A stretch of 64,000 nt of DNA. Source: Patescibacteria group bacterium (lineage in GTDB: Bacteria; Patescibacteriota; Minisyncoccia; UBA6257; GWB1-50-10). The stretch is taken from positions 2,571 through 66,570 of the forward strand of contig JASEIC010000001.1 of assembly GCA_030017555.1 (NCBI GenBank). The letters are read 5' to 3'. A program made the position numbers and the translations under genes. Below the pieces are notes generated by a model that had not been told where the DNA came from, made no database searches, and was given only the letters and a program-made list of their open reading frames with translations. Below are positions 417 through 59,823 of the stretch, piece by piece (the first letter of the stretch is position 1; each line of letters opens with the position of its first letter).

Positions 417-2351
417 TTAAGGCAAAACTACGCCGCTACCTTGACCAAGCGTCCGATCATCGGGCAGAGTTGAATCAATCGCTGTGTCGCTCCGCGAAAT
501 TTCCAAACCCGTGAAATCATCAACGGCTTTAAAAACCGACTCGGCAAGCAAGAACATTGCCTGACCAACGTTTACAACAGACGGCGTAACTCGAATTTGA
601 AAAACCGCTTCAACCGGATCATTAATGACGCCGGTCGTGGCAGAAATTTTCTTTTCAATATTCCAAATAACTTCTCCGGTTCTATTATTATAAGTTGGCT
701 TAGAATCAATATTGCTTTTCACCACGCCAGTCCATTCGACGCCCGGTTTAAGCGCGGATTTAACCGAAACATTTTTAATATCGGTTGAATAATTTTTAAT
801 CACCCAATGAACAGTAATATCCGTTGATTTGTTCGCCTGAAAAGGTATTTTTCCGCTATTTACAATACCGGATGGCGCGTCTCGATAAAATGCTTGTGCA
901 TCAAAAAACACCAGTCCAGCCACTTTTGTCTCTAAGCTAACCGAAGACTTTGTTTTTGCAGCCGAAAGATAATAAGGCACTGATGGAGAATCTATTTCAA
1001 TATTAAGCCTGACATAAAAATTCTTGTCATTCATCCGTCGAATAGGAAATTGTTGCTTTAAACTAATATTAAAACTGACCTCCCCCGAAGCTCCGGGACT
1101 TAAAAGCTTAAACGCGTCAATTTGTGAAGCATTCCAAGTTATCGAACCAGCCGCGTAATCAATGGCGCCGTTTGTATTAATAGAAGAAAAATCAAAAAGT
1201 TCCCCAACTGGCGTCGCTTTTACAATAAGATCAGCCAAGGCAATACCGCTGTTATTTTGATATTGAATATTATAAGTAAGAGAATCGCCAATTCTTGCTA
1301 TATAGTCTTGTTGACGATTTACAAGAATTTGAAGATTTATCGGCGATGGCGCGACTTCAAGATTTATAACATCTTCAGCTAATTTATAATCTTGACCGGA
1401 AAAACGAGCATAAATAATAACCGGGATGCTTAATCGAATATCACTGCCGCCTTCAAAAGTCCCCTTAACTTGAAGTTTGCCGGTCGAACCGGATTCTAAC
1501 GCGCCAAGCCGCCAATAATTATTTAGTGAATCGGGCCGAAGACTTGCCGATATGAATTTAAATGAAGTCGGATAACGGGTTTCAAGCACGACCTCCGGAA
1601 AACTAAAATCTGAAGTGTTTTTATAACTGACTTCAAATTCAAAAGTCGATCCTTGAAGCAAAAATTCCGGTTTCTTAACTTCAAGTTTTATTCCCGAACC
1701 GCGAATCAAAACCGTTTTTGCCTCATTTGCTTCGAATCGCGCCCTGCCGCCGCTAGTATAAATGAACTTGGCATTAATCTTAAGAGAAGAATTTTCTTCG
1801 CCGACCGGTAAAAACTTAAAAGTTCTTTTAGCCAAAGATCCGGCGCCGATATCGCCAATTGTTTCCTCAACTGTCGGACTGGGACCGCCCAAAGCAGTTA
1901 AATGCGCTATGCCGGGCGGCAAATTAAAACTCAAAACCGCGCCAGTAATTAACGTATCAAACCGATTTACAACATCAACTGTTACCTCAAATGGTACGCC
2001 CCGATTTACTTCCGACGGAACTATTATTGAAAGATTAATATTGCTTCCGTTATTACGATTCCCGCCAGAAAAAAGAATAATAACCGCGCTAACAACAATA
2101 AGAATCGAAAGGGCTGCGACAATTATTACTGCTTTTTTAAATATTCCTTTTTTGGCTTTTTGGGATTCTGAAATCGGCTCCTCTTCTCTAAAACTGCTTT
2201 CGTTTTTCAACTCTTCCCAAACTTGAGCTACTTCCTCTTTTTGATCTGAAGAATCGTCGCTTTTTGACGCATTTTTTTTGGAAACGCTGCGCCGTTTCAC
2301 GATATCGGAATTTTTCCGATAAAGTTCTTTTTCTAAATTATCCAATGACAT
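417..2351 (-). CDS. Large membrane-anchored surface protein with repeated beta-rich extracellular domains (hypothetical). It has a Lys/Ser-rich cytoplasmic N-terminus and a single TM.
   Basis: 644 aa ORF. TM helix AVIIVAALSILIVVSAVIILF follows a charged N-terminal tail. The remainder is rich in T/S/G/N and beta-like repeats. No catalytic motifs recognised. Confidence 0.55.
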   Translation of the reverse strand: MSLDNLEKELYRKNSDIVKRRSVSKKNASKSDDSSDQKEEVAQVWEELKNESSFREEEPISESQKAKKGIFKKAVIIVAALSILIVVSAVIILFSGGNRNNGSNINLSIIVPSEVNRGVPFEVTVDVVNRFDTLITGAVLSFNLPPGIAHLTALGGPSPTVEETIGDIGAGSLAKRTFKFLPVGEENSSLKINAKFIYTSGGRARFEANEAKTVLIRGSGIKLEVKKPEFLLQGSTFEFEVSYKNTSDFSFPEVVLETRYPTSFKFISASLRPDSLNNYWRLGALESGSTGKLQVKGTFEGGSDIRLSIPVIIYARFSGQDYKLAEDVINLEVAPSPINLQILVNRQQDYIARIGDSLTYNIQYQNNSGIALADLIVKATPVGELFDFSSINTNGAIDYAAGSITWNASQIDAFKLLSPGASGEVSFNISLKQQFPIRRMNDKNFYVRLNIEIDSPSVPYYLSAAKTKSSVSLETKVAGLVFFDAQAFYRDAPSGIVNSGKIPFQANKSTDITVHWVIKNYSTDIKNVSVKSALKPGVEWTGVVKSNIDSKPTYNNRTGEVIWNIEKKISATTGVINDPVEAVFQIRVTPSVVNVGQAMFLLAESVFKAVDDFTGLEISRSDTAIDSTLPDDRTLGQGSGVVLP

Positions 2352-13320: not shown

Positions 13321-13904
13321 AATATAAAAATTATAGCAAACCCAGTACTACAACCTCAATATAAAAACGCATTATTGAAGTTGTAGTGCTGGGCTAAAGA
13401 AAAAAACCTTACAACACGCAAGGGTTTTTATATTGAGGGGGTTAATAAATTTCAGAAACTGGAAGATTTTTGCCGATTTTTTGATTTAGGTTTCAAATCT
13501 TAAAACTAGACACTATGATTCTCCAACCAACAACAAGCACCAAAAGAAATAACTCAAATTATAAACCGCTTGTAAAAGCGGTTTTGTTTTGCGAATACCC
13601 CCAAAAATTGGGTCAAAATGTTTAGCGTGAAACATTTTGATTTTACGAAAAACAAAAGCGTAGGTTTCATCGCATTATCAGGCGCGCACATTTTTTATGT
13701 GTTTTTCACGATTTTATTATAAATGTAGGTTTCATGCGGTTATCTGATTTTTCGGGTTTTTTCTGTTTTTTGAGTTTTTTGAGTTTTCCCGGTTTTCCCA
13801 ATTTTATCATATTTCCCAGTTTTTTCAATTTTATCATATTTTCAAATAAAATAGGCCGACCAATTAAAGATCGACCTACTTAAAGTGCTGTTTTGATTAA
13901 TTAA

Positions 13905-14447
13905 TCAAAATGTATATTGTATTCCAATTAGTTCTGTTGAAATTTCGTCTTTTTGAAGAGTAGTTGCCCAACCAACAAATTTTCCTATATTAAATTGAAT
14001 ACGCGGACCATTACCAAAATACCGTTGATCCATAACCCCTAAACCCAATTCCTTTAAAAAGTTGATATTGACAACGATACGATGCCAAGGTCCAGAACCG
14101 CCATTTTCGTAAATCGCAAGAAACGAACCCTCGTCAATTCCAAGCCATAATGATGTGGCATATCTTCCAGCTGGATTTGCGCTTTCAATTCCATAAAAAA
14201 CACCAACCCGCGACCAAATAGTCGGGGAAAAAGTCGGCCCAATATATGCTTCAGACCAGTATTGACCCGAAAGCGACCACGCAGACCATCCGAAGTTGCC
14301 AATAATAGAACCATTTAAGTACAAATCAATATTCGGAGTTACTTGAGATTCAACAAAAGTAAATTGATTTTCAACATATCCAGTAATTTGAGCAAAAACT
14401 GGACAAGAAATAACAACAAGAACAAGAACCAAAAAAAGATTTTTCAT
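13905..14447 (-). CDS. Secreted beta-rich protein with an outer-membrane beta-barrel-like signature (terminal ...IQYTF)
   Basis: Signal peptide (cleavage near VFA-QI). Alternating aromatic/Gly-rich beta-strand-like segments. C-terminal aromatic-X-Phe end typical of small 8-strand OMPs. Confidence 0.45.
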   Translation of the reverse strand: MKNLFLVLVLVVISCPVFAQITGYVENQFTFVESQVTPNIDLYLNGSIIGNFGWSAWSLSGQYWSEAYIGPTFSPTIWSRVGVFYGIESANPAGRYATSLWLGIDEGSFLAIYENGGSGPWHRIVVNINFLKELGLGVMDQRYFGNGPRIQFNIGKFVGWATTLQKDEISTELIGIQYTF

Positions 14448-14612
14448 TGAATACCTCTTTTAGAAATAATTAATAGATTGGTTATTTAGATTTAAAAATT
14501 CTGATATTAAGTATAGCATACACGACTTGAGATGTCAATACCGCGTTATTTATTGAAATAATCAAACTATCCGCTTGAAATAAGAACAAATTTAAACTTT
14601 AATAAATAAGCC

Positions 14613-22596: not shown

Positions 22597-23139
22597 TTAA
22601 ATTATTTTATTGCCGCGTTTTCCGAATCCTGTTGCGTACTCGCCAAAATTTGTTTTACCAGCCAAATAACCCCAGGAATCAGCAAAAATAATGCGGTTTT
22701 TTGTTTTTATTTCCAAATACTGGTGAATATTAAATTCATAAAAAGTAAGATGCTCTTTAACGTCATTTTCACTAAACCTTCCGCTCTTTATAAGCATTGT
22801 TTTTAGCGCGAAATTTAACACGTTACACGTTTGTTTTTCGCCAATTTGATTCCAAATTTTATCAATATTTTTACGAAACATAATTTGAGGATATAAATGA
22901 GTTTGCCCAATCTTTATAATGTATCGCTTTTTTAAAAAATCTAAAAGCAATTTAATAAATTTTTCATCAGAGTTTTTTGTTTTTTCAGAAATTTCATCAG
23001 CGGTTTTTTGCATTTCAGAATTAATTACTTCTGGTATGGAAATTTTTCGCAAATGCGGAATAACAAACGGCGCAACAACGAAAATAATGAAAAAATAAAC
23101 TAAAATAACAATAAGAATTATAAGAACAAAAAACGGCAT
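22597..23139 (-). CDS. N-terminally anchored membrane protein (hypothetical)
   Basis: Strong N-terminal TM (FFVLIILIVILVYFFIIFVVAPFVI). 180 aa. Confidence 0.45.
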   Translation of the reverse strand: MPFFVLIILIVILVYFFIIFVVAPFVIPHLRKISIPEVINSEMQKTADEISEKTKNSDEKFIKLLLDFLKKRYIIKIGQTHLYPQIMFRKNIDKIWNQIGEKQTCNVLNFALKTMLIKSGRFSENDVKEHLTFYEFNIHQYLEIKTKNRIIFADSWGYLAGKTNFGEYATGFGKRGNKII

Positions 23140-23374: not shown

Positions 23375-25252
23375 TTATTTAATAACTATCGGTTTAAGAT
23401 TAAAACTTTTTATAATTTTGTAAAACTCTTCATGTTCTAAAGTTTCTTTTTCAATCAAGATTTTAGCAATTCTATCAAGTGTTTCTTTTCGAGTTTCAAT
23501 TATTTTCTTAGCCGTATTTAAAGCTTTATTTATAAGACTTTTTACTTCTTTATCTATTTCCGCGCCAATTTCTTCAGAATAATCCTTTTCAGTAGAAATC
23601 TCGCGGCCTAAGAAAATAAGCTCTTGGGTTTTACCAAAAGACCTTGGACCTAATTTTTCATTCATTCCGTATTGAGTAATTAATCGATGAGCTAATTCAG
23701 TCGCTTGCCGAATATCACTTGAAGAACCGGTGGTAATATCTTTAAAAATTAAAAGTTCCGCCGCGTAACCGCCAAACGAAACCGCAAGATCTGTTAAAAA
23801 TTGAGACTTGGTTCTTAACCGCCGCTCTTCAATTGGAAGTTTAATAGTATAACCGCCGGCAATACCGCGACTAACAATTGAGACTTTATGAATCGGATCG
23901 GCTTCTTTTAATGACGCCGCAACCAACGCATGGCCTGCTTCGTGATAAGCGGTAATTTCTTTTTCTTTTGGTGAAATAATTCTGCTTTTTCTAGCAGGAC
24001 CTAAAAGCACTTTTTCAATAGAAGTTAAAATATCATCTTGAGCAATGATTTTGCGATTATGCCTTGCCGCCATAATTGCGGCTTCATTCAGTAAATTAGC
24101 GAGATCAGCGCCGGCAAAACCCGGCGTTCTTACGGCGACAGTTTTTAAATCGGTATTTTTATCCAAATTTTTCCCGCGACTGTGAATTTTTAAAATTTCC
24201 TCCCGGTCATTTATATCCGGCATATCAAGAATAACTCTTCGATCAAATCGGCCGGGACGCAAAAGCGCTTGATCTAAAATATCAGCCCGATTTGTCGCAG
24301 CTACAACAATAACATTTGTATCCCGTTCAAAACCGTCCATTTCCACCAAAATTTGATTTAGGGTTTGCTCCCTTTCGTCATGCCCGCCACCCAAACCAGC
24401 GCCACGCTCACGCCCGACCGCATCAATCTCATCAATAAAAACAATGGAAGGCGCGGCCCGCTTTGCGGTTTGAAACAAATCTCTTACCCGGGATGCGCCA
24501 ACGCCAACAAACATTTCCACAAACTCTGACGCGGAAATATGGAAAAATGGAACATTTGATTCGCCAGCGACCGCTCGCGCAAGAAGAGTTTTGCCTGTAC
24601 CTGGTGGGCCCATTAAAAGCACGCCACGGGGAATTCGAGCGCCGATTTCCAAAAACTTTTTTGGATTTTTTAAAAAATCCACAACTTCTTCTAATTCTTC
24701 TTTTGATTCCCTAAGCCCGGCCACGTCTTTAAAAGTTACCTTATCGCGCGATTGAGCAAAAAGACGAAGATTAACTTTACCAAAAGAAAAAGCTTGATTA
24801 ACGCCGGTTTTTGCCTGACGGAAAATCCACCAAAAAAGAGCGACCAAAATAATAATTGGCAAAAGAGAAGGAATAAGAATGCCTAACCAATATTTAATAC
24901 CGCTTTCGTCTTCGATTTTGTAAGAAACTTTTTGGAGCGCTTTTTCGTCAACGCCATAGTTTTTCAAAGTTTCCGTAAGCGAACTTTCGGCTTCTTTCCG
25001 AGAAATAGCATTAGTGCCGTCTTGAAGCAAAACCTTAACATCAGAACCGCCAACTGTAATATTTTTTACTTCACCAGCGTTAATCTTTTCGGCAACCTGA
25101 TCTAAAGTAAGTATCTGCGCGTCCGGCGAGCTAGATTCAAAAAGAAACGAAAAAAGAAGAGTAATGGAAAAAAGGACAATAAACGCCCAAAAGAAATTTT
25201 TGCCTAAATTTTTCATCCTTAAAATATTACAGGAATTTAAAACGAAAATCAA
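23375..25252 (-). CDS. ftsH: ATP-dependent zinc metalloprotease FtsH
   Basis: Walker [17 protein letters not shown] region, and zinc motif HEAGHA. Confidence 0.95.
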
Positions 25253-25267
25253 TTTAAAATAAAAAAC

Positions 25268-25289
25268 CGCTCCGAGTCTGGACTCGGAG
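25268..25289 (-). terminator. Intrinsic terminator for the minus-strand gene 25306..25974 (gctccgagtc tg gactcggagc + T-run on the minus strand)
   Basis: Perfect 10-bp stem. The A-run on the plus strand gives a U-run on the minus strand. Confidence 0.6.
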
Positions 25290-25305
25290 CGAGATGATTA
25301 TAATT

Positions 25306-25974
25306 TTAAAATTGAAGAATTATTCCCCTGCAATACGCTTCAGCAATTCTGATTATCTTGTTTTTAATAGTAAATTCCGTATCTTTTTCATTTACAATTA
25401 ATGCGGGAATTTTATGGCCAAATTGACGCGCGTGCTCTTTTAATCCCTCGAATGAACTTTTTACCTGAATCGGTATTTCTTTTTGTTCTTCTTTGGAAAT
25501 AAATAAAATATTAAGATCAATACCATCATATCGGTCTTGATTTTTTGTGGACAGCCAAACATCCCTCACTGGTGAATTGCCAATCATATTTTTTGCTGTT
25601 GCAAAAACCATATCTTCATGCTGCCAACCTTTTTTACGAGCGTTAATTTCCCTTAAAATTGTCTCCGTCAAATCTTTAAAATCAGGAACTTCTTTTAAAA
25701 AAATTTGGCCGTGATAAGCCGATTCTCTGTGCCGCCAATCCTTTACTGGTTCAATGAATTCAATTTTTAAACGCGGTTTGTCTTTTCTTATTTTAAGAAT
25801 AAATTCAATTAGTCTTGCTTCTACTTTTCCTTCTTTGTAACCTTCAATTACATTATTGTCCCGTAAATCTTTTAAGACTTGTCGAATTAAACTTTTGCTC
25901 CAGCTAATTACTCTTGATCGCAGTTTGGTTTTTTTCATTTTCAGCACCGTCCTTTTCTTTAATTGACTGCTCAA
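25306..25974 (-). CDS. Hypothetical protein, possible PD-(D/E)xK-like nuclease fold (weak)
   Basis: 222 aa. Segment YDGIDLNILFISKEEQKEIPIQVKSS loosely resembles D...(E/Q)xK nuclease motifs. The overlap with the next gene makes the exact start uncertain. Confidence 0.4.
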   Translation of the reverse strand: MSSQLKKRTVLKMKKTKLRSRVISWSKSLIRQVLKDLRDNNVIEGYKEGKVEARLIEFILKIRKDKPRLKIEFIEPVKDWRHRESAYHGQIFLKEVPDFKDLTETILREINARKKGWQHEDMVFATAKNMIGNSPVRDVWLSTKNQDRYDGIDLNILFISKEEQKEIPIQVKSSFEGLKEHARQFGHKIPALIVNEKDTEFTIKNKIIRIAEAYCRGIILQF

Positions 25975-26215
25975 TCACGTGTTTTACGTTATCGAAATTA
26001 ATCGGGAAAAAAGAATCAAAATTAATAACAATCGGACTTTTATTATCAGCGCGAATTATTCGAGCTTTTATTTTAAAAATCTCTTTGGTTGATGACTGGA
26101 TTACTGAAAAACTTTCAATACCAAACATACCTCTTTTTTTTAAACTGCAAAGAGCTGATTTAATGGTAGAAATTCGAACGTTTAATTCATTAAAGCTAAT
26201 TAGTGGTTTTTTCAC
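25904..26215 (-). CDS. Hypothetical 103-aa protein; overlaps the downstream gene by 35-71 nt
   Basis: ORF only. No motifs. Confidence 0.35.
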   Translation of the reverse strand: MKKPLISFNELNVRISTIKSALCSLKKRGMFGIESFSVIQSSTKEIFKIKARIIRADNKSPIVINFDSFFPINFDNVKHVIEQSIKEKDGAENEKNQTAIKSN

Positions 26216-26351
26216 TCTGTTTCCTTATTTAGTTATCAAATTTAGCTAAAGTAAAACATAACACTAACTAGAAAATAATGCAAGGTGTTATAAAAATGAA
26301 AAGCCCCGCAAGATTTTTAGTTCTGGGGGCTTAAATATTACTTTAAATTAT

Positions 26352-27128
26352 TTAGACGGCTGTCGGCTGGGCAGAAATCCCTTTTCGAGTCGCATTCACC
26401 ATATCCCAATAAGCATTTTTTTCGGCTAAATCAGTGATCGCGTAGTGCGGCGGGCACTCTTCGTAAAAGCAGTTATGGCTTGCTTTAAACCATGCCTGTT
26501 CTGCGGCTAGCGTAAAATTCTTTTCTGCTATTTTACGCATAATGTGTTCGGGCGGAGAATTGCCATCAGCGATCCAAAAGAATGCTTCGTTCGTCCACTT
26601 AATAGTTGGCGTTTCTTCATGAAACTCAATCGCGGTTTTCGTAACTCGGAAGTCAACTGGCAGCTTCTTCGCAAGAAGGTAGAAACTATCGCTTTCCGGC
26701 ACAATGCTATATGCGATGATAGTCCCAAAATCGCGAAGCGCGCTCGCTTCCACGACATAAAGCACATCGTGGACAGTACGAAATCCAGCAATTGGACCGT
26801 TGGTCCACTCAACTGGCAACTTTTGACCAAGTCGGTTACAGATAATCTTCCCACAATTCGGTTCGCTAATTTCTACCGCTTGAAGTTGGAAGAAAAACTT
26901 CAAACCCTGAGGAATTTCAACTAACGGAACGATCTTATAAATCTCTTCACCCGTCTTTTCGGTAAAGTCATCTTCAAGACTACAGAGAATTTGTGTCCGA
27001 GGCACATTTTTTCCCCCTTGCCGAACAAACATCACTTGTTTATTTTTCTTGTTTAAGGCAAGTTCTCGAAATTGCCCGCGATGACCATTGATCATCGCAA
27101 AAACTTCAACGTTGTTTAATTTAGTCAT
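26352..27128 (-). CDS. Hypothetical 258-aa protein encoded by a GC-rich compositional outlier gene; monocistronic with its own consensus promoter and terminator
   Basis: Visibly higher G+C than its neighbours, with overlapping alternative-frame ORFs. SD AGGAG upstream of the ATG. Promoter at 27186-27214(-). Hairpin terminator at ~26295-26330. Confidence 0.55.
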   Translation of the reverse strand: MTKLNNVEVFAMINGHRGQFRELALNKKNKQVMFVRQGGKNVPRTQILCSLEDDFTEKTGEEIYKIVPLVEIPQGLKFFFQLQAVEISEPNCGKIICNRLGQKLPVEWTNGPIAGFRTVHDVLYVVEASALRDFGTIIAYSIVPESDSFYLLAKKLPVDFRVTKTAIEFHEETPTIKWTNEAFFWIADGNSPPEHIMRKIAEKNFTLAAEQAWFKASHNCFYEECPPHYAITDLAEKNAYWDMVNATRKGISAQPTAV

Positions 27129-27185
27129 TTTAAAATCTCCTATTAAATTGTTAAAAAATAATTATTGAATTATAAAAACTGCTAT

Positions 27186-27214
27186 AATTATAGCAGTCCT
27201 TGTTTCGTTTGTCA
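27186..27214 (-). promoter_or_regulatory. Minus-strand consensus promoter TTGACA-N17-TATAAT with the same 18-bp palindromic -10 module (27178..27195) as the promoter at 12440
   Basis: Reverse complement reads ggtattgacaaacgaaacaaggactgctataattatagcagttttta. Shares the identical blocks GGTATTGACAA and CTGCTATAATTATAGCAGTTTTTA with the 12.4 kb site. Confidence 0.55.
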
Positions 27215-27245
27215 ATACCGAATAAGCCTTTATTTTACTAAGTTT

Positions 27246-28334
27246 TTACCCTTTAAATTTCAAAATAATGCGTTTTTCCTCAGGTTTTATACCTTCAATT
27301 ACAAATTGATATTCTTTACCCTGAACAATCTGTTTTTTCATTTCTTCAACACTGCCAAATTCAGTAACGCTTAATTGTCCCTGAAGCTCATTGCCTAAAT
27401 CAATAATCGCGCCAAATGGATTAAAACTATAAACCTTTCCTTTTGCTTCTTGACCTTTTTTATAATGCTCGCCGAAAGTGAGCCACGGATCAGAAACGAG
27501 GACCTTAAGAGAAAGCGAAATTTTACCATCTTTAATTTCCGTAATTTTAACTTTTACCACATCATCAACTTTTACTATTTCTTTCGGATTTTCGATTATC
27601 CGGTGACTTAATTCCGAAATATGGATTAAGCCTTCAACCGCGGGATTATCCGTAAACCTTACAAAAACTCCAAAATCAGCAACGCTTGAAACAATACCTT
27701 CCACAATCTGACCTACTGAATAATTTTTGACTAATTCTTTTGTTGAAATTTCAGTTGCCTCTCTTTCAGAAACAATAAGTTTGTTGTTTCTGGGATTTGC
27801 TTCAATTATTTTTACGGTTAATTCCTGGCCAACCAGAAGCTCGAGAGCCTGAGAAAAACCCGTTTTATTATCAACTGCCGTTTTTGGATAATGTTCGGTT
27901 GATAATTGGGAAACCGGCAAAAACGCCTGAAGACCGCTAATAACTCCAGTAAGTCCGCCTTTGTTAAAAGCTAAAAATTTAACTTTAATTGGTTCGTCTT
28001 TTTCTTTTATTTCTTGAACTTCAGCCCAAGCTCTTTGTTTGCCGGCTTCAGAAAGAGAAAGCTCAACAAAACCTTCTTTATTATCAACGGTAATAACTTT
28101 AGCATGAACAATATCGCCGACTTTTAAATTTTTCACGGCTTCCTTGGCATTTTGAACTTCGGCTCGATAAACCGCGCCTGTGCCAAATCTACCCAAATCA
28201 ACCATAAGCATATTGGATCGATTCTCCAAAACTCGTCCTTCCACTAAATCTCCTGTTTTAAAAAGCGAAAAAAGTCCAGGCTCGAATTTAATAAGCTGGG
28301 AAATTAGCGCGTTGTTATTTTTATTACTATTCAT
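27246..28334 (-). CDS. rpsA: 30S ribosomal protein S1 (short form with four S1 domains)
   Basis: Repeated S1 OB-fold repeats (GDLVEGRVL..., GDIVHAKVI..., GQELTVKII..., GQIVEGIVS...). Confidence 0.75.
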   Translation of the reverse strand: MNSNKNNNALISQLIKFEPGLFSLFKTGDLVEGRVLENRSNMLMVDLGRFGTGAVYRAEVQNAKEAVKNLKVGDIVHAKVITVDNKEGFVELSLSEAGKQRAWAEVQEIKEKDEPIKVKFLAFNKGGLTGVISGLQAFLPVSQLSTEHYPKTAVDNKTGFSQALELLVGQELTVKIIEANPRNNKLIVSEREATEISTKELVKNYSVGQIVEGIVSSVADFGVFVRFTDNPAVEGLIHISELSHRIIENPKEIVKVDDVVKVKITEIKDGKISLSLKVLVSDPWLTFGEHYKKGQEAKGKVYSFNPFGAIIDLGNELQGQLSVTEFGSVEEMKKQIVQGKEYQFVIEGIKPEEKRIILKFKG

Positions 28335-28421
28335 ATACGAGCAAGGTTATCACACTAAGCCGTTGAAAATCAAGTAAAAAAATCTTATAATTAACAACAC
28401 CTCATTTCAAACACCCAAAAC

Positions 28422-29018
28422 ATGGTCATTACTTATCAAGGCGACAATTATTTTAAATTTCAATCAGGAGAAACCGCAATTTTAATAGACCCGACAAATC
28501 AACGTTCTTTTAAAGGAGCGGTTTTAGTTGTCAACACCGAAGAACCAAGCGCCGTTACGCCAGATAAAAAAAAAGAGGAAAGAGAACAGGGTTTACCTTT
28601 TTTTATAAATCATCAAGGCGAGTACGAAATTAAAGGCATTCAAGTAAAAGGCGTAAGTATTGGTTATGATGAAAAAGAAAAAAAAGAAAATACTCTTTAT
28701 CAAATAATTTTTGATGAAATAAAAATCGCTTGCTTAGGTCATTTAAAAAACGAACTGAATCCAAAACTTCTGGCTGATTTAGAGGACGCTGACATCATGA
28801 TTTTACCCGGCGGCGGCAAGCCGTTTATAAACGAAGCTCAAGCCGCAAAAATAGCAAGACAAATCGCGCCAAGCATAATAATTCCTTCGCTTTATAAAGA
28901 TGTCAAAAATTTCTTAAAAGAATTTGATAAAACAAAGCTTGAATCGCAAGATAAATTAGTAATCAAAAAGAAAGATTTGAAACCGGAAGCGCTTTCAATA
29001 ATTTGGTTAAAACCATAA
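28422..29018 (+). CDS. Metallo-beta-lactamase-fold-like protein lacking a canonical HxHxDH motif (hypothetical)
   Basis: N-terminal MVITYQGDNYFKFQSGETAILIDP pattern of the MBL-like UPF0173 type. Only weakly supported. Confidence 0.35.
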   Translation: MVITYQGDNYFKFQSGETAILIDPTNQRSFKGAVLVVNTEEPSAVTPDKKKEEREQGLPFFINHQGEYEIKGIQVKGVSIGYDEKEKKENTLYQIIFDEIKIACLGHLKNELNPKLLADLEDADIMILPGGGKPFINEAQAAKIARQIAPSIIIPSLYKDVKNFLKEFDKTKLESQDKLVIKKKDLKPEALSIIWLKP

Positions 29019-29025
29019 AATAGCA

Positions 29026-29430
29026 ATGGCGTTTTTATTTAATATAAAGAAATATTTGCGTGAATTACAGCGAGCTGATGATCAAAGAAAAAAACATTGG
29101 CTTGTGAGCGTTTCAATGGTATCAATGATTTTAATAATTTTTCTTTGGGCTGTCTTTTTCAATCTGGATCTCAAACCAACAAATCAAGACAAAGAAATAA
29201 CAGCTGCAAACAATCAAAAAGAAAGTTTTTGGCAAACAGTAAATAACGGAATCAAATCCATAAGCAGCGCTTTCAATGGGAAAATCAGTGATATAAGAAA
29301 CAGCATTAACAAAAGCCTTGAATCATTAAAAAAGAAAGCTGAAAAAACCAATGACTTTTCTGTAAATGAGAATGCAATAAATCCGCCAATATCAAATTTT
29401 ACGCCGTTACCATCGACGCCACTTCCCTAA
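29026..29430 (+). CDS. Single-pass membrane protein (hypothetical)
   Basis: TM VSVSMVSMILIIFLWAVFF. 134 aa. Confidence 0.4.
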   Translation: MAFLFNIKKYLRELQRADDQRKKHWLVSVSMVSMILIIFLWAVFFNLDLKPTNQDKEITAANNQKESFWQTVNNGIKSISSAFNGKISDIRNSINKSLESLKKKAEKTNDFSVNENAINPPISNFTPLPSTPLP

Positions 29431-29436
29431 AAAAAT

Positions 29437-31923
29437 ATGACTAAACCGGAAAAAACAACACAAAATTCAAATCACGGGAAAATCGAACAAAAAGAAATAA
29501 CCGACGAACTCCGCGAATCTTATCTTGATTATGCGATGTCAGTTATTATTTCACGCGCCTTACCCGATATTCGTGATGGCTTAAAACCGGTTCAACGCCG
29601 AATTTTATGGTCAATGTGGGATGATAACATAACTCATAGCGCGAGATTTAGAAAATCAGCCAACATTGTCGGTTCAGTTCTTGGCCGCTATCATCCCCAC
29701 GGCGATATTCCAGTCTACGACGCTATGGCCCGCTTAGCTCAAGAATTCTCTCTTCGCTATCCATTAATTGATGGCCAAGGCAACTGGGGATCAATTGACG
29801 GCGACCCGCCAGCCGCTATGCGTTATACCGAAGCTCGACTTTCAAAAATAGCCGAGGAGGTTTTAATTGATATAGAAAAGGAAACCGTTGATTGGCAACC
29901 AAACTACGACGGCACTCGCAATGAACCAAAATTTTTGCCAGCCAAATTACCCAGTCTCCTTTTAAACGGGACGGTTGGCATTGCCGTTGGTATGGCAACG
30001 TCCATTCCGCCGCATAATCTTGTTGAAGTTGTGAATGCATTAACATATTTAATTAAAAATCCCGATGCGACCACTGAAGATTTAATGAAATTTCTGCCCG
30101 GACCGGACTTCCCGACCGGCGGCATAATTTACGGCATAAAATCCTTGGAAGAAGCCTATACGACCGGACGCGGTTCAGTTACTATTCGCGGCGTAGCCGA
30201 AATAGAAGAAGGAAAACGAGGTTCCAATCAAATTATATTCACAGAAATTCCTTACCAAGTGAATAAAGCTAACTTGGTTTCAAAAATCGCCGAACTAGCG
30301 CAAGAAAAAAAAATTGAGGGTATTCGCGATTTGCGAGATGAATCCGATCGTACGGGCTTGCGTATTGTAATTGAATTGAAATCAGACTGCATTCCTCAAA
30401 AAGTATTAAATCAGCTTTATGAATACACCGAACTTCAAAAAAACTTTTATTTCAACGTATTAGCTTTAGTGGGCGGCATTCAACCTCAAGTTCTTTCATT
30501 AAAAGAAGTTCTTTCTCAATACCTTGACCACCGAACAAAAATTATCCGCCGTCGAACCGAATTTGATTTAAAACACGCGGAGGAACGAGCTCATATATTA
30601 GAAGGTTTGGCAAAAGCGCTTAGCGTTATTGATAAAATAATCTCCACTATCAAAAAGTCCCGTGATCGCGAGGAAGCGAAAAAGAATCTTATTAAAAATT
30701 TCAAATTCTCCGAAGCCCAAACAATTGCCATTTTAGAAATGAAACTTCAAACTCTCGCGGCGCTTGAACGAGAAAAAATCGAGGATGAATTAAAAGAAAA
30801 GAAAAAACTAATTACCGAGCTAACTCTTATTTTGAAAAATCCAAAGAAAATTTCCGGCATTATTTCTCAAGAAATAAATGGATTAAAATCCAATTTTCCC
30901 TCTCCTCGCAAAACTAAAATTATCGCGGCGGACTTAAAAGAATTCCGAGAAGAAGACCTTATCCCCGACGAAGAAGCAATAATTACTCTAACCGAAGACG
31001 GATATATCAAACGGATGCCGCCGACCGCTTTCAAAGCGCAACGTCGGGGCGGCAAAGGATTAATCGGTTTTGAGCTAAAAGAAGAAGATCAAATCCATCA
31101 ACTAATTGCGGTTGATACTCATGATAATATTCTATTTTTCACTGACCGCGGTCGGACATTCCAAACCAAAACTTATGAAATTCCCGCTGCCAGTCGGACA
31201 TCAAAAGGCAAATCAATTCACAATTTTTTAACTATCCCGCCTCAAGAAAAAATAAGCGCAATTGTAAGTTATTCAGAAAAAGAAGCTGAAAGTTCGGGTA
31301 AAGAACAGAAATTCCTTGTTATGGCCACAAAAAAAGGACTGGTTAAGAAAACGCCGCTTAAAGATTTTAGCAATGTGAGAAAAACAGGAATTATCGCGAT
31401 TAACCTAAAATCCGATGATCTTTTAAGATGGGTAAAGCTTTCTTCGGGTGACGACCAAATTATTATTGTTTCACGGTTTGGCCAATCAATTCGCTTTAAA
31501 GAAAAGGACGTTCGCGGAATGAGCCGAACCGCGGCCGGCACTAAAGGAATTCGCATAAAAAAAGATGATTGTGTTTCCGGACTTGATATAATAAAGAAAG
31601 AACAGGCTGAAAATCAAAAAGACCTGCGTTTGCTTGTAATCATGACGCGCGGTTTTGCCAAACAAACGCCCCTTAAAGAATATAAAATCCAGCATCGAGG
31701 CGGCGGCGGCATAAAAACCGCAAAGGTTACTGAAAAAACCGGACCAGTCATTGCCGCTCATGTTATCTCTAAAGAAAACGAAGAAGTTCTTGCTTTTTCA
31801 TTAAAAGGCCAAGCTCTCCGAACTAAGTTAAATAATATTCGCCTCGCGGGCAGAGCCACTCAAGGAGTAAAAATAATGAATTTGGAAAAAGATGACGCGT
31901 TAATCGGCGTTATTTGCTTTTAA
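29437..31923 (+). CDS. gyrA: DNA gyrase subunit A
   Basis: [26 protein letters not shown], catalytic Tyr region [10 protein letters not shown], and C-terminal beta-pinwheel repeats. Confidence 0.95.
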
Positions 31924-31926
31924 AAA

Positions 31927-33246
31927 ATGACATTTAATAAAAATCAAATCATAGTTATTGCCTCGGTTTTCGGCGCAGTTTTAATTCTTATTTTAATTTT
32001 CACCGGTATTATTCCCGGCCTTAAGCCTAAACCGGAAGTAGTCGAACAATATGAAGCGACTCTTGAGTTCTGGGGAGTTTTTGATACGCCCGAATCTTAT
32101 CGGGCCGGTTTTCAAAATTTTGGAACTATTTACCCTAAAGTCACCATAAATTATCGCGGTTTTTCTGATCCGGAAAATTATGAACGGAATATAATTGAAG
32201 CTCTTGCCGAAGGGCGAGGACCCGATATTTTTATGATCAGGAACACAAGTCTTTTAAATTATTTGGGCAAAACAACGCCGATTCCAAATCAAAAATTCAA
32301 TATTTTCCAATTACGCCGACTTTTCCCGGAAATTGTTGAACAAGATTTTTCAAACCAAGAAAATATTTTTGCTTTACCGGCTTCAATCGATACCTTGGCT
32401 TTAATTTATAATCGCGATCTTTTTAATCAAGCGGGTATTGTTTATCCGCCAGCGACTTGGGAAGCTTTTAAAGATTTGATTCCTAAACTTGTTAAACGCG
32501 AATCAGCCACAAAAATCGTTCGCGCGGCCGCGGCGATTGGAGGTTCCAATAAAACAATAAGCCGAGCAGCCGATTTATTGTCGCTTCTTATGCTTCAAAC
32601 AGGCACAAAAATGGTAAATGAAAATTTAAGCGGCTCCGAGATTGCTTCGCAACAAGCGATAAACGCCCTGGAGTTCTATACCCAATTTTCTGATGCCGCC
32701 AAAGAAAGCTATACCTGGAACGATACTATGCCTAAAGATTTGGATTTTTTTAGCGCGGAAAAAACAGCAATGATTTTTAATTATTCAAAATCCATTCCTG
32801 AAATCCAAAATAAAAACGCTTTTTTAAATCTTGCGGTCGCTCCATTACCTCAGCCAAAAGCCGCCCAAAAACCGATTACTTTTGCCAATTACTGGGGGTA
32901 TGTTGTTTCGCGTCAATCCCGTTTTAATAATGTCGCTTGGGATTTTATTCTTAAACTTACAACCGACGAAGGAAACGCGAAAAGTTACATTGATTCAGCG
33001 AAAAAACCGCCGGCTCTTCTTTCGCTTATTAACCAAGCTGTAAATGACGAGTCAAAACCAAATGAAGCGGTTTTTGCAAAACAAACTCTTATTGCCAAAT
33101 CCTGGCCGGAAACCGAACCGCTCACAATTCAAAAAATTTTTTCTAATGCGATTTCTTCAGTTATAACCGGACAAAAAAGCGTCAAAGGCGCTTTAGAAGA
33201 AGCTAATAATTTAGTATCGCAAATTTTATCAAGGCGAACGCAATAA
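31927..33246 (+). CDS. Extracellular solute-binding protein (ABC transporter substrate-binding, family 1-like), membrane-anchored
   Basis: N-terminal TM anchor followed by a type-2 periplasmic-binding-protein-like sequence. 439 aa. Confidence 0.55.
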   Translation: MTFNKNQIIVIASVFGAVLILILIFTGIIPGLKPKPEVVEQYEATLEFWGVFDTPESYRAGFQNFGTIYPKVTINYRGFSDPENYERNIIEALAEGRGPDIFMIRNTSLLNYLGKTTPIPNQKFNIFQLRRLFPEIVEQDFSNQENIFALPASIDTLALIYNRDLFNQAGIVYPPATWEAFKDLIPKLVKRESATKIVRAAAAIGGSNKTISRAADLLSLLMLQTGTKMVNENLSGSEIASQQAINALEFYTQFSDAAKESYTWNDTMPKDLDFFSAEKTAMIFNYSKSIPEIQNKNAFLNLAVAPLPQPKAAQKPITFANYWGYVVSRQSRFNNVAWDFILKLTTDEGNAKSYIDSAKKPPALLSLINQAVNDESKPNEAVFAKQTLIAKSWPETEPLTIQKIFSNAISSVITGQKSVKGALEEANNLVSQILSRRTQ

Positions 33247-33284: not shown

Positions 33285-33701
33285 ATGAAACCTTTTTTAG
33301 CAGCGCTTTTTATTATTCTTATTGCTTTCTCTTTTTTGCCCATAATTACTCATGGCGCAGAGGGCACGGGGATTTGGGCAAGCACCACCTGCGCTGCCAC
33401 TAGCAATACTGGCGGACCAAACAAGCCTTGTTCGTTTTGCGATGCTCTTATTGTTACAAAAAATATTATTGATTTTCTTTTTAAAGTCGCTATTCCGTTA
33501 GCGGTTGCTATTGCTGTTTATGGCGCGGTTATGATGATGCTTGCGGCGGGCTCAGAAGAAAGAGTAAGAAAATCAAAACAAATCATTACCAGAGCTTTTA
33601 TCGGGCTTGCAATCGCGCTATCGGCTTGGGTTATTATAAATACTTTTCTTCATATATTAACCGGCCAGCCAGATTTCCCGTGGGCAACCATAACGTGTTA
33701 A
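33285..33701 (+). CDS. Pilin-like small protein, paralog 1 (signal peptide plus two C-terminal hydrophobic helices split by a short charged loop; VirB2/TrbC-like topology)
   Basis: Signal peptide. ...VAIPLAVAIAVYGAVMMMLAAGSEERVRKSKQIITRAFIGLAIALSAWVI. Confidence 0.45.
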   Translation: MKPFLAALFIILIAFSFLPIITHGAEGTGIWASTTCAATSNTGGPNKPCSFCDALIVTKNIIDFLFKVAIPLAVAIAVYGAVMMMLAAGSEERVRKSKQIITRAFIGLAIALSAWVIINTFLHILTGQPDFPWATITC

Positions 33702-33716
33702 AATCAAAAAAATAAT

Positions 33717-34058
33717 ATGAAAAAAATAAACATTGCGCTTATTATATTAATTGGTTGGCTGATTAATTTGATTTCTTTTAAAAACGTTTCTGCGACAACC
33801 ACGATTGAGTTGCCAAATCCAATAAATGCCACAAGCACTATTGCGATTTTAAATTCTATTTTAGCCGTATTACAAACTTTTGCGCATCTAATTGTTGTTA
33901 TTATGGTTTTGATTGGCGCTTTTCAGATACTTTTCGCGGCCGGCGATCCGGAAAAATTCAGCAAAGGCAAAAAAACAATATTGTATTCTGTTATAGGATA
34001 TGCTATAGTATTAGTTGCTGGCGGAATAACCAGCTTCATCGCTGATTTTCTACAGTAA
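33717..34058 (+). CDS. Pilin-like small protein, paralog 2
   Basis: Same architecture: ...IVVIMVLIGAFQILFAAGDPEKFSKGKKTILYSVIGYAIVLVAGG. Confidence 0.45.
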   Translation: MKKINIALIILIGWLINLISFKNVSATTTIELPNPINATSTIAILNSILAVLQTFAHLIVVIMVLIGAFQILFAAGDPEKFSKGKKTILYSVIGYAIVLVAGGITSFIADFLQ

Positions 34059-34146
34059 TTTTGCTATAATTAAATCGGCGATCAAAAAGTCATAAAAAGG
34101 TCGAAATCTGGATTTATTTCCTAAACATGAAATTACTAAAAAAAAT

Positions 34147-34509
34147 ATGAAATCAATAATCAAATTCACGGCAATTGTCGGGATAGCAATAATTATGGCC
34201 TTACCACTTATCACCTCGGCCAGAGCAGCCGGACCATTAACACCACCTGTTACTTATGTCCCACCAATTACTAGCATCACGGAAGTAAAAGGCCTTTTAG
34301 ACCGGCTCATTAATTGGTTACAATACATATTCTTCGCTTTAACCGCTTTTTTCCTTATCGGAGCCGCATTCTTATACCTTACTGCTGCTGGCGATGAAGA
34401 TAAAGTAAAGAAAGCGAAACAAATGATTATTTACGCTGTTATTGCAATGGTGATTGCGCTTTTAGCAACAGCGGTTAACACGATTGTCATTACTTTATTA
34501 CAAAGATAG
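34147..34509 (+). CDS. Pilin-like small protein, paralog 3
   Basis: Same architecture: ...LTAFFLIGAAFLYLTAAGDEDKVKKAKQMIIYAVIAMVIALLATAV. Confidence 0.45.
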   Translation: MKSIIKFTAIVGIAIIMALPLITSARAAGPLTPPVTYVPPITSITEVKGLLDRLINWLQYIFFALTAFFLIGAAFLYLTAAGDEDKVKKAKQMIIYAVIAMVIALLATAVNTIVITLLQR

Positions 34510-34556: not shown

Positions 34557-34600
34557 CCCCCGTCTCTTTCAAAAGGATTTGACGGGGTTTGTTTTATTTT
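34557..34600 (+). terminator. Intrinsic terminator after the pilin-like triplet (acccccgtc...gacggggtttgttttatttt)
   Basis: 8-bp GC-rich stem plus T-run. Lies inside the 5' extension of track ORF 34579, whose real start is therefore 34654. Confidence 0.6.
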
Positions 34601-34653
34601 TAATTTGCCGTCTAAGCTGGAACCGATTTATAATAAATCAAACAAACCGAAAA

Positions 34654-36006
34654 ATGGAGAAAAAACTTCATCTTTTTCTTTTTCTGCTTATCCTTGCTTT
34701 TAACATTCTTTTTCACGTTTTTAATATCGCTTATCCGGCAAAACCAGTTTTTGATGAAGCCCATTTCGCGACTTATGCCGCCCGTTATGCTACTCATCAA
34801 CCGGTCTTTGACATTCATCCGCCTTTGGGCAAACTTTTTTACGCCCTTCCTTTAATTTTTAATCCGGAAAAAGCAAATATTTCTGATGCGAATTTTATTG
34901 AAATGAAAAAAAATCAAAAAACCGGTATTTTTGAAACAACAACTCCTAAAAAAGAATATAGCAACTTTCCTTATGTTCCCTTACGCTTGGTAAATGTTTT
35001 TTTTGGCATCTTGCTTTCAATTTCTGTATTTGCTTTTTTAAAAGCTCTTACGAAAAACAATTTAATTGCTTTATTGGGCATGTTTTTAACTGTTTTTGAC
35101 AACGCCCTGCTTCTTGAGGGCCGTTTAATTCTTTTAAATATAATGTATTTGTCTTTTGGCTTTTTCTCGCTTGCGCTTTTTTTCAAACAAAAATCCTCGC
35201 CGATTTTAGCCGGAATTATTTGGGGGTTTGCTTTAAGCGTGAAATTAATTTCAATAGTTTTTTTGGGCCCGGTTATTACTTTAATTATCCTTTCCAAAAA
35301 TCAGGAAAAATTTAACGCTATAAAAAAATTTGTTATTTTTCTTTTTATTGGGTTCTTTGTCCTTGCCATTGCTCTACTTTTTATAAATCCGATTATTTTC
35401 GGAGCAAACAACAGCCTAAACTTCTATAAAACTCTAATAAGCGATTTAAATCCCGATGCTCAAATAATAAAAAATCCGTTTTTCTCGTTTTTAAATCCTA
35501 TCGCCTCCAACATAAAAGTGGCGGCTATTGAGTTTTATGTAATGCTTTCGGGCTACACCACCGGCGCGTCGCCCCATCCATCTCAAAGCCATTGGTACGC
35601 GTGGCCTATTATGCAAAAAACCATTCCATATTTTATAGAATCGACAAATGAAACAACCAAAACAATCAGCCTTATTGGAAATCCTGTAATTTGGGCTTTG
35701 GGTTTGTTGTCAATATTATTTTTTATTTTCAGAAAACATAAAATTTTTGAAGGTCTTGAAAAAGAAACATGGATAATTTTCATCGGTTATCTCGCTTCAC
35801 TCTTGCCTTATATTTTCATATCCCGCCCGGCCTTTCTTTATCACTACTTCCCCGCTCTTATTTTTTCAATTTGTCTTGCTTCAATTTTTATTGCTAAAAA
35901 AAATAGAAAAGATGAATTAAAAATAAACAAGGTTTTGTTAATAAGTTTAATAACAATTATTATAACAGGATTTATAATAATCTTACCCCGTACGTACGGT
36001 TTCTAA
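34654..36006 (+). CDS. PMT-family (GT39-like, GT-C fold) protein O-mannosyltransferase or related polyprenyl-phosphate-sugar-dependent glycosyltransferase
   Basis: Loop-1 DE motif in PVFDEAHFATYAARY (compare VFDEVHFG of Pmt1) and a polytopic membrane topology. Start trimmed to MEKKLHLF with an SD. Confidence 0.65.
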   Translation: MEKKLHLFLFLLILAFNILFHVFNIAYPAKPVFDEAHFATYAARYATHQPVFDIHPPLGKLFYALPLIFNPEKANISDANFIEMKKNQKTGIFETTTPKKEYSNFPYVPLRLVNVFFGILLSISVFAFLKALTKNNLIALLGMFLTVFDNALLLEGRLILLNIMYLSFGFFSLALFFKQKSSPILAGIIWGFALSVKLISIVFLGPVITLIILSKNQEKFNAIKKFVIFLFIGFFVLAIALLFINPIIFGANNSLNFYKTLISDLNPDAQIIKNPFFSFLNPIASNIKVAAIEFYVMLSGYTTGASPHPSQSHWYAWPIMQKTIPYFIESTNETTKTISLIGNPVIWALGLLSILFFIFRKHKIFEGLEKETWIIFIGYLASLLPYIFISRPAFLYHYFPALIFSICLASIFIAKKNRKDELKINKVLLISLITIIITGFIIILPRTYGF

Positions 36007-36014
36007 TTTTTAAA

Positions 36015-37238: not shown

Positions 37239-37256
37239 AAACCAATCAAATATCAT

Positions 37257-37964: not shown

Positions 37965-37966
37965 CC

Positions 37967-53630: not shown

Positions 53631-53777
53631 AAAATGAATCCCTCACCCTCCAAAGATTGTTTAACATAAAAACAAAAAATATTCCTATGAATTACAAGCA
53701 ATTAAAAACAACAAGTTTCAAAACGCTTCTCTGGTCGCGAAGCGACTTTATCTTTGAAAGGTGAGGGATGAAATTTT
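53631..53777. mobile_element. Miniature inverted-repeat element (copy A, no ORF) of the tccctcaccc/gggtgaggga family. The right repeat provides the stop, SD and ATG of the downstream gene.
   Basis: Left aaaatgaatccctcaccctccaaagat (53631-53657) and right atctttgaaaggtgagggatgaaatttt (53750-53777) are imperfect inverted repeats around a 92-bp core with an internal gtcgcgaagcgac hairpin. Confidence 0.45.
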
Positions 53778-54577: not shown

Positions 54578-54580
54578 TTT

Positions 54581-56374: not shown

Positions 56375-56380
56375 AATTCT

Positions 56381-58801: not shown

Positions 58802-58817
58802 TTTAATTATTTAAAAT

Positions 58818-59738: not shown

Positions 59739-59823
59739 AACACGCCCATGAATCCCGTTAGAAGCAACTAAATCATGAAACCTATAAATACTAAGCATTT
59801 ATCTGAATCAATAAAAGGGATGA

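Follow-up and report, generated by a model that had tools for sequence, protein, structure and literature searches.

The gene described here lies on the (-) strand of a 64,000-nucleotide stretch of contig JASEIC010000001.1 from a Patescibacteria group bacterium belonging to the Candidate Phyla Radiation (CPR); this whole stretch is referred to as the window. It encodes a 180-residue secreted precursor whose mature part very probably folds as a β-barrel of the type known from bacterial outer membranes. The features of the gene and its product are as follows:

13905..14447, (-): complete barrel gene including the stop codon, encoding the 180-residue precursor, with ATG start and TAA stop (open reading frame (ORF) list and sequence)
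14510..14538, (-): putative sigma-70-like promoter, TTGACA, 17-nt spacer and TG-extended TATACT (promoter scan, 11/12 matches)
14454..14459, (-): ribosome-binding site AAGAGG, 6 nt 5' of the ATG (read off the sequence)
14391..14447, (-): Sec signal peptide, residues 1–19, with predicted signal peptidase I (SPase I) cleavage between VFA and Q (n-, h- and c-regions visible; family pattern)
13908..14390, (-): mature protein, residues 20–180, 161 residues, with 12 predicted antiparallel β-strands
14223..14258, (-): most conserved motif, W-S-E-A-Y-I-G-P-T-F-S-P, residues 64–75, in strand 4 (family column counts)
14085..14108, (-): conserved E-N-G-G-S-G-P-W, residues 114–121, at the tight turn of strands 7 and 8 (E114, G116 and W121 at least 90% conserved)
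13908..13925, (-): C-terminal β-signal-like G-I-Q-Y-T-F, residues 175–180 (family column counts)
13841..13881, (-): intrinsic-terminator-like hairpin, 13-bp stem and 7-nt loop, then a U-rich tract, starting 24 nt past the stop codon

The gene and its precursor

Because it has its own ribosome-binding site, promoter and terminator, the barrel gene is, as read from the sequence, a self-contained monocistronic unit, and it diverges from ftsK. The promoter matches the consensus, which does not by itself imply function. The RNA of the terminator hairpin folds at -17.7 kcal/mol (z = -4.6), and 0 of 200 shuffled sequences fold as well. When the window was searched with the profile of the protein family described below, this gene was the sole match (219 bits).

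The precursor begins with MKNLFLVLVLVVISCPVFA, followed at the predicted cleavage point by QITGYVENQ, and ends in ELIGIQYTF. Its signal peptide comprises MKN, the K falling within the n-region, a hydrophobic core 15 residues long and V-F-A at -3/-1. In the 132-sequence family alignment, from which the conservation counts were taken, Ala stands at -1 in 93 members and Gln at +1 in 78, and since these residues are kept the site is regarded as a canonical SPase I site. Judged from sequence and alignment, the Sec/SPase I signal peptide of the outer-membrane protein (OMP) class, with A-x-A followed by Q conserved in the family, is present. A lipoprotein was considered and rejected: the codon of Cys15 (14403-14405) lies within V-I-S-C, formally a lipobox, yet the family does not conserve the Cys and its column 15 is S, A or V. 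The close homologue P0002 carries I-F-S-C and P0003 has no Cys there; lipidation is unlikely, although it may occur in the sub-lineage of the query.

The mature part contains 13.0% Gly, 4.3% Trp, 5.6% Tyr and 6.8% Phe (Trp, Tyr and Phe together 16.8%; Gly plus aromatic residues 29.8%) and has a net charge of -5. Its 180-degree (β) hydrophobic moment lies above that of shuffled sequences with z = 2.5, 56 of 5000 shuffles being as high. The alternating-strand signal of the single sequence seems real yet moderate, and it is the conservation of the pattern across the family, not the single sequence, that takes it beyond chance. These values bear out a preliminary description of this DNA, in which the gene product had been taken for a secreted protein with strand alternation, rich in Gly and aromatic residues.

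The protein family and its predicted structure

Searched as a single sequence, the query had no match in Pfam, NCBIfam, PHROGs or the PDB sequences. A word-indexed homologue search found only three relatives, and 17 when the 132-sequence profile was used. An exhaustive HMMER search with a profile built from the alignment of the three relatives returned 576 representatives of clusters at 50% identity at E ≤ 1e-3, and 334 at E ≤ 1e-10. With few exceptions, the 576 representatives are 170–200 residues long (about 175–195) and were aligned end to end. The 132 members had no significant match to Pfam, the sub-threshold ones being only to the outer-membrane barrel families OMP_b-brl, DUF2490 and Phenol_MetA_deg, and the family profile found nothing among all PDB sequences. 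As far as these comparisons reach, the family is large, previously unannotated and without a sequence relative in Pfam, NCBIfam or PDB. No description of it was found in the literature on CPR/Patescibacteria barrels, porins, BamA and diderm or monoderm envelopes. The protein is thus no lone oddity, but one member of a large family that is apparently restricted to the CPR.

Ten positions of the mature protein are at least 90% conserved (G70, G86, E88, R95, E114, G116, W121, G137, G145 and G147), and the mature N-terminus in the family reads G-[FWY]-[VI]-E-x-Q. At the other end, the exact terminal Phe is kept in 94/132 members and Phe occupies the last aligned column in 104/132 (71–79%). Position -5 is Gly in 67, Ala in 24 and Ser in 17 members, and position -2 is Phe in 28, Tyr in 27 and Leu in 23. 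The reading of GIQYTF as an OMP signature is upheld by these counts, the ending having the form of a C-terminal β-signal (G-x-x-aromatic/hydrophobic-x-aromatic, terminal Phe), with position -7 hydrophobic in the query where the β-signal expects a polar residue. G-x-x-aromatic-x-Phe is the typical ending of enterobacterial porins, for which Struyve et al. 1991, cited in PMC10629564, may be compared. An enzyme of the OMPLA, PagL or LpxR kind was also considered and is unsupported, since there is no invariant Ser-His-type set and His122 is present in only 44/132 members.

AlphaFold2 run with a 3-sequence alignment was uninformative (predicted local distance difference test (pLDDT) 41). With the 132-sequence alignment the pLDDT was 95.5 and the predicted template-modelling score (pTM) 0.84, and all five models lay at 95.0–95.5. 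In the model the signal-peptide helix (residues 2–13) stands apart from the barrel and is followed by 12 β-strands of 8–15 residues with turns of 2–5 residues. The strands span residues 22–32, 35–49, 52–61, 65–76, 79–88, 94–104, 107–116, 119–129, 134–141, 145–154, 157–166 and 169–179. The predicted barrel is closed and antiparallel, its strands are even in number and its two termini lie on one side, as in the OMP class, and it superposes onto closed 12-stranded outer-membrane barrels across 152–161 residues. Its best structural matches are exclusively outer-membrane barrels. The matches and their scores are:

KdgM: 16.7 (152 residues aligned, 2.6 Å)
NanC: 16.2
VhGalP: 16.0
Intimin β-domain: 15.1
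PcoB: 15.1
Autotransporter barrels: 13–15
LpxR: 13.1
Designed 12-stranded transmembrane barrel: 11.6
8-stranded OMPs: 8–10 (alignment of only about 90 residues)
Soluble barrels (LolA, nitrobindin): 7.9–8.2

Foldseek is in agreement (KdgM, E 7e-6, TM 0.61–0.64), and a viral structure library yielded weaker OMP-type barrels only. The 161-residue mature chain is shorter than every natural 12-stranded barrel in the hit list. On this model a barrel fold is very probable. What was obtained is a confident closed β-barrel whose best matches are outer-membrane barrels only, and not the soluble β-sandwich that had been set beforehand as the outcome speaking against one. The preliminary description had placed the protein in the OmpW/OmpX size class; the barrel stands but the strand number of that class does not, as the predicted protein has 12 strands rather than 8 and almost no loops, and is like that class in chain length alone.

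The strands present two distinct faces. Face 1 is 67% hydrophobic and 5.6% charged, with a column entropy of 2.84 (poorly conserved), while face 2 is 30% hydrophobic and 22% charged, with a column entropy of 2.21 (better conserved) and 13 Gly in the query. All of the residues that are at least 90% conserved (10/10) fall on polar face 2. In the last strand, I174, I176, Y178 and F180 lie on the hydrophobic face, as in porin β-signals. The hydrophobic belt and polar lumen of the OMP class are both found, the direction having been deduced. A variable hydrophobic face together with a conserved, polar, Gly-rich one is characteristic of a transmembrane barrel and the opposite of what a soluble one would show, and the protein is likely to be membrane-embedded.

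The conserved polar residues fall mostly in the half of strands 4–10 distal to the termini (E66, E88, R95, E114, the GGSG turn, W121, R/K123, Q141, G145, G147 and R149). This suggests a conserved ring of acidic and basic residues near one mouth of the barrel, opposite the termini, where the axial placement is that implied by strand order. Such a ring could be a selectivity filter or gate.

Genomic surroundings and taxonomic range

At 100% identity, the protein matches 'MAG: hypothetical protein QMD65_00095 [Patescibacteria group bacterium]' (P0001), encoded on a 66,776-bp contig of a metagenome-assembled genome (MAG). A 76%-identical homologue is present in a second Patescibacteria MAG (GCA_030018585.1) with like neighbours, namely FtsK, an HTH_25 protein and RecA, and because the synteny is repeated there an artefact of binning or chimerism is disfavoured. 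The window as a whole resembles the DNA of a CPR epibiont, with scattered housekeeping genes, a glycosylation cluster, LysM-M23 and PrsW envelope proteins, pilin-like genes and a monoderm-type type IV secretion system (T4SS).

Every family member with an organism name (about 10) is from the CPR, which together with the identity to a Patescibacteria MAG protein confirms the CPR-like lineage first suspected from the sequence. The named homologues from sequence searches come from 'Patescibacteria group bacterium' (two), 'bacterium' (one) and 'Minisyncoccia bacterium' (one). Species-representative genomes were scanned with a 6-sequence alignment and one narrow peptide pattern (the strand-4 motif W-S-E-A-Y-I-G-P-T-F-S-P), and 6/6 confirmed loci were CPR: Patescibacteria group bacterium (two), 'bacterium nzgw438', Candidatus Paceibacterota, Candidatus Berkelbacteria and Candidatus Magasanikbacteria. 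Members without an organism name lie on long contigs in CPR-like surroundings (RNase J, TrmB paralogues, DUF2207, T4SS pilins and many small genes of no assigned function). Restriction to the CPR appears to be the current picture rather than a proven one.

A family member with 33% identity (L015:4992-5546) was also observed on a 12.7-kb contig classed as viral (IMGVR_UViG_3300010379_000109), beside a UvrD-type helicase (phrog_1967), a GIY-YIG/NUMOD3 homing endonuclease and a DUF3310/phrog_5839 protein. Within the 10.5 kb examined, genes for phage structural proteins were absent. The barrel gene may here be carried by a phage or mobile element of the CPR, or the contig may be a piece of a genome that was misclassified.

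By profile search, the barrel gene is single-copy in the window and in every related locus. Its neighbours in the various loci are housekeeping genes that differ by lineage (NusA, UPF0102, FtsK, RecA, PNPase, RecG, EF-P and FtsH). In 6/10 independent loci (L003, L004, L006, L007, L008/9 and L010/11) a regulator of the TrmB family (PF01978), of about 250 residues, is encoded divergently 190–1000 bp upstream. The TrmB-family winged helix-turn-helix regulators are:

L003:6966-7727, (-)
L004:241-978, (-)
L006:1388-2134, (-)
L007:4494-6494, (-)
L008:8966-9748, (-)
L010:8988-9761, (-)

The L007 regulator has 666 residues with a repeated C-terminal domain, and TrmB regulators occur in several copies on CPR contigs, three of them in L008 alone. 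No TrmB regulator is present in the window, L001, L012 or L013; the window copy of the barrel gene has a strong consensus promoter instead of a TrmB neighbour. The regulators of the barrel loci are full-length homologues, yet they are no closer to one another than to other TrmB paralogues of the same contigs. A dedicated orthologous TrmB partner was therefore rejected, the regulators being no closer than paralogues and the window having none; the link is recurrent but not obligatory. We infer frequent, non-obligatory transcriptional control by a ligand-responsive regulator.

The order FtsH, a protein of no assigned function, S1 protein, metallo-β-lactamase (MBL)-fold protein, a second protein of no assigned function, GyrA, solute-binding protein (SBP) and pilins is shared by window positions 23375-33246 and L012:3226-12050, L012 being the contig of the 42%-identical homologue P0004. 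There the barrel gene stands beside FtsH, and in the window it stands beside FtsK, about 9 kb apart; it has thus changed place inside a region whose gene order is otherwise kept. A 180-residue ORF (22597-23139) beside FtsH, at about the place that the barrel gene occupies in L012, was considered as a paralogue and rejected, as it has no match to the family profile and has a membrane-anchored, α-helical look.

About 200 kb of CPR DNA was screened heuristically for a signal peptide combined with an aromatic C-terminus; besides family members, the screen returned only two proteins that are multi-pass or anchored and a single small Pro-rich ORF. In the window the sole other small ORF with a signal peptide and terminal Phe is 53199-53630 (+), which encodes 143 residues with an N-terminal signal or anchor, a Pro-rich C-terminal half and the end GTSLF. 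It has no barrel-family match and lies directly upstream of T4SS-associated genes. The monoderm-type T4SS cluster itself (53768-63068, (+)) includes two unannotated secreted or anchored proteins (269 and 597 residues), an 806-residue multi-pass VirB6-like protein, a PrgI-family protein (60120-60617), together with a TraC/VirB4 ATPase seemingly split into overlapping ORFs (60667-61314 and 61311-63068). Small pilin-like genes, three in tandem (33285-34509, (+)), each with a signal peptide and two transmembrane segments, adjoin the SBP gene 20 kb from the T4SS; L012 has the same pilin/SBP arrangement, with matches to PF18895 T4SS_pilin.

Other features of the window were recorded in passing. The glycosylation cluster (34579-40021, (+)) is of low GC content (30–34%, against about 38% elsewhere) and encodes a protein-O-mannosyltransferase (PMT plus PMT_4TMC), a 407-residue multi-pass protein without a Pfam match and two GT2 glycosyltransferases; on its 3' side follow a tRNA and then a 796-residue fusion of major facilitator superfamily (MFS)-like, spermine-synthase and M28-peptidase domains. 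At 417-2351 (-) a 644-residue protein carries a DUF11 repeat, as in surface and cell-wall proteins, with a weak DUF7619 match, and is probably exposed on the CPR cell surface. Between the barrel terminator and the UPF0102 gene lies a 584-bp non-coding region (13321-13904) whose + strand is very rich in T. Short direct repeats beginning GTAGGTTTCAT occur there at 13660 and 13725, TTTTATCATATTT motifs recur around 13800-13850, and 15-nt inverted-repeat pairs lie at 13354-13368/13424-13438 (100% complementarity) and 13579-13593/13646-13660. The region had no Rfam match at the gathering threshold.

Interpretation and comparison with known systems

In the reading preferred here, the precursor would be exported by Sec and cut by SPase I after Ala19, and the mature chain would fold to a closed, monomeric, 12-stranded antiparallel transmembrane barrel essentially without extramembrane loops. 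Its exterior would be the variable hydrophobic belt, its lumen polar and Gly-rich with the near-invariant residues (the ten listed above together with E26 and E66), and its last strand would end in G-x-x-Y-x-F. The barrel would sit in a lipid layer as a small-solute channel and a core component of the CPR cell's own envelope. Insertion would proceed without the canonical β-barrel assembly machinery (BAM), by spontaneous or otherwise-assisted folding, which the loop-less, short-strand design and the scavenged, lysolipid-rich CPR membranes would favour. In many lineages an adjacent TrmB-type regulator would control expression. The ORF, signal peptide, family, fold, surface pattern, C-terminal motif and gene context come out of the computations, whereas membrane embedding, channel function, BAM-independence and regulation are the steps that we infer. 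BAM-free folding of β-barrels into liposomes, especially of smaller ones, has been described (PMC13018214), and CPR are unable to make their own membrane lipids and are lysolipid-enriched (PMC7242380).

Taken whole, a core small-solute channel of the CPR envelope, inserted without canonical BAM, is given an even chance, and channel function on its own is held in the same balance. Residence in the cell's own envelope rather than in a host is put at evens or a shade above, because the gene is single-copy and set among housekeeping genes, with conserved lumen, variable exterior and frequent pairing with a regulator. The bilayer concerned may be either an unrecognised outer lipid layer or the sole (cytoplasmic) membrane. 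A self-inserting minimal porin serving as a passive conduit for host-derived metabolites, whether in the CPR cytoplasmic membrane, an unrecognised outer layer or a host membrane, is a tentative and somewhat doubtful proposal.

Several points weigh against a BAM-independent channel of the CPR envelope. We know of no β-barrel integral protein of the cytoplasmic membrane. Because the lumen face holds 4 Trp, 3 Tyr and several aliphatic residues, the lumen may be narrow or occluded rather than an open channel. The two faces were assigned from the strand boundaries of the model and the family profile, with inside and outside deduced by analogy and from the composition and conservation of each face. 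Organism names are attached to about 10 of the 576 representatives only, and the pattern used in the genome scan was narrow, so that diderm phyla may also have members. Genes for Bam/Omp85, lipopolysaccharide (LPS), Lol and chaperones were not found in the 64-kb window and about 140 kb of related CPR loci, which leaves the whole genome unsettled, and OM-biogenesis (outer-membrane biogenesis) families had no match among window ORFs of at least 150 residues. The CPR are classed as monoderms that lost the outer membrane and its markers (10.1101/2021.05.31.446380; PMC10160955; PMC12102498): they are grouped with Chloroflexi and Dormibacteraeota as a monoderm clade in which OmpM with its S-layer homology (SLH) domain and other outer-membrane markers were lost (10.1101/2021.05.31.446380), and in another account 'Chloroflexi and CPR lost theirs' (PMC10160955).

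Alternatively, the epibiont might export a monomeric 'delivered porin' into the host membrane at the contact site for metabolite theft. Such a host-directed pore is unlikely, given that the gene is single-copy among housekeeping genes with the T4SS about 40 kb off, and that a conserved lumen and variable exterior over 25–40% identity across CPR classes suggest a core function and not an arms-race effector. Furthermore, the Sec signal reaches the epibiont's own surface only, with no evident route into the host periplasm, and an LPS leaflet disfavours insertion from the outside. An ordinary BAM-dependent porin, in a carrier CPR that is diderm or retains a remnant outer membrane with a divergent or overlooked Omp85, is rated as a distinctly poorer prospect. 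The sequence and structural hallmarks of a BAM substrate are all present, including the conserved terminal Phe, and the conserved C-terminal recognition-like motif suggests a partner that reads it. Cryo-electron tomography of the cultured CPR bacterium Mycosynbacter amalyticus revealed an uncharacterised 'outer layer' beyond the cytoplasmic membrane (PMC11880426), and the envelope has been directly characterised in very few CPR lineages (PMC8871954). However, the CPR fall in a monoderm clade without outer-membrane markers (10.1101/2021.05.31.446380; PMC10160955), their T4SS is monoderm-type (PMC12102498), and the DNA searched here gave neither outer-membrane biogenesis genes nor, in the heuristic screen, any other OMP-like protein, whereas true diderms encode many.

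The protein might instead not span a bilayer at all, its hydrophobic exterior being buried in a homo-oligomeric or S-layer-like lattice, or it might carry scavenged lipids or other hydrophobic molecules. Either role is considered improbable, although CPR require host-derived lipids (PMC7242380), several Trp, Tyr and aliphatic residues line the lumen face, Thermotoga possesses, in its toga, a largely proteinaceous outer sheath of β-barrels (PMC10160955), and periodic surface layers are reportedly present on groundwater CPR (Luef et al. 2015). That the locus is an artefact, either a diderm gene, contaminating or recently acquired, on a contig that was mis-binned, or a fold hallucinated from a β-rich amphipathic sequence, is largely refuted and very unlikely indeed. 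MAGs can be chimeric and the model from the 3-sequence alignment was poor, but CPR-type content runs throughout the contig (monoderm-type T4SS, pilins, PMT and small housekeeping genes), the 76%-identical homologue in the second MAG retains the FtsK/HTH_25/RecA neighbours, all six genome loci are CPR, the GC content near the gene is unremarkable, and the deep-alignment models are uniformly confident (5/5).

Outer-membrane-type β-barrels have been treated as a diderm hallmark, and their absence is one argument for regarding the CPR, which make up perhaps 15–50% of bacterial diversity, as monoderms that lost the outer membrane. The family raises the possibility that some CPR have a lipid-containing outer layer missed by genomics and limited imaging or, alternatively, that β-barrel membrane proteins work without BAM in a single-membrane cell or a host membrane. 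If true, a self-inserting porin would be the first natural BAM-independent β-barrel membrane family of a monoderm lineage; otherwise the family would be evidence of a retained lipidic outer layer in part of the CPR. In either case, views of the CPR envelope and of how the outer membrane was lost in Terrabacteria would change. The CPR were not treated in a large survey of transmembrane barrels (PMC10629564). The family could serve as a marker for phylogenetic profiling of CPR envelope types, and it is a candidate route of metabolite uptake where recognisable transporters are very few. A small, loop-less protein of 161 residues should be easy to express and refold, which makes both envelope possibilities (an outer lipid layer, or barrels that work without BAM) directly testable.

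The fold class is well known; what is new is the family, its minimal 12-strand design and its apparent restriction to a superphylum believed to lack an outer membrane. In β-pore-forming toxins a soluble protomer gives one or two hairpins to an oligomeric barrel, whereas the CPR monomer is predicted to be a whole 12-stranded barrel without a soluble domain, and no pore-forming toxin was among the structural matches to the model. Soluble and periplasmic barrels (lipocalin, LolA and nitrobindin) have a hydrophobic interior, a polar exterior and 8–11 strands, unlike the CPR protein. The 8-stranded OmpX, OmpW and OmpA barrels share with it a precursor of about 170–210 residues, a signal peptide, alternating strands and a C-terminal Phe, but the strand number differs and the PF03922 or PF13505 match of that class is absent.

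The closest architecture is that of KdgM and NanC (PF06178; PDB 4pr7, 4fqe, 2wjr and 8xua), small substrate-specific porins whose 12-stranded monomeric barrel is also predicted for the query. PF06178 gave 0 matches at E ≤ 1 against the 132 members, and hhalign gave 2% probability against NanC and 6.5% against a 12-sequence KdgM/NanC alignment. Because profile–profile comparison indicates no sequence homology, the protein is, on the model, a fold-alike of the KdgM/NanC architecture and not a member of PF06178. The mature KdgM/NanC chain has about 215 residues against 161 (about 55 fewer), and the CPR protein is without long extracellular loops. In NanC and KdgM basic tracks select acidic sugars, whereas the conserved lumen residues of the CPR protein are mainly acidic (E26, E66, E88 and E114). 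The link of KdgM and NanC to acidic-sugar catabolism is likewise not seen, the neighbours being housekeeping genes and the recurrent TrmB-family regulator, and the CPR host lineage is thought to have no outer membrane, unlike the hosts of KdgM and NanC.

Beta-barrels outside the classical Gram-negatives include OmpM of diderm Firmicutes, the toga barrels of Thermotoga and MspA of the mycomembrane (PMC10160955, PMC10628300). Like the CPR protein these are barrels in atypical envelopes, and they bear on the loss or rebuilding of the outer membrane. In those organisms, however, a second layer has been demonstrated, with BamA in all but the mycobacteria; moreover, OmpM has an SLH tether and MspA forms an oligomeric barrel, whereas the CPR protein would be a bare monomeric barrel without a tethering domain. 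The family may also be the natural counterpart of the recently designed minimal transmembrane barrels TMB12 (PDB 9fdg) and TMB10 (8uzl), from which it differs in being natural and conserved, and in having a signal peptide, a β-signal-like end and a conserved charged cluster in the lumen.

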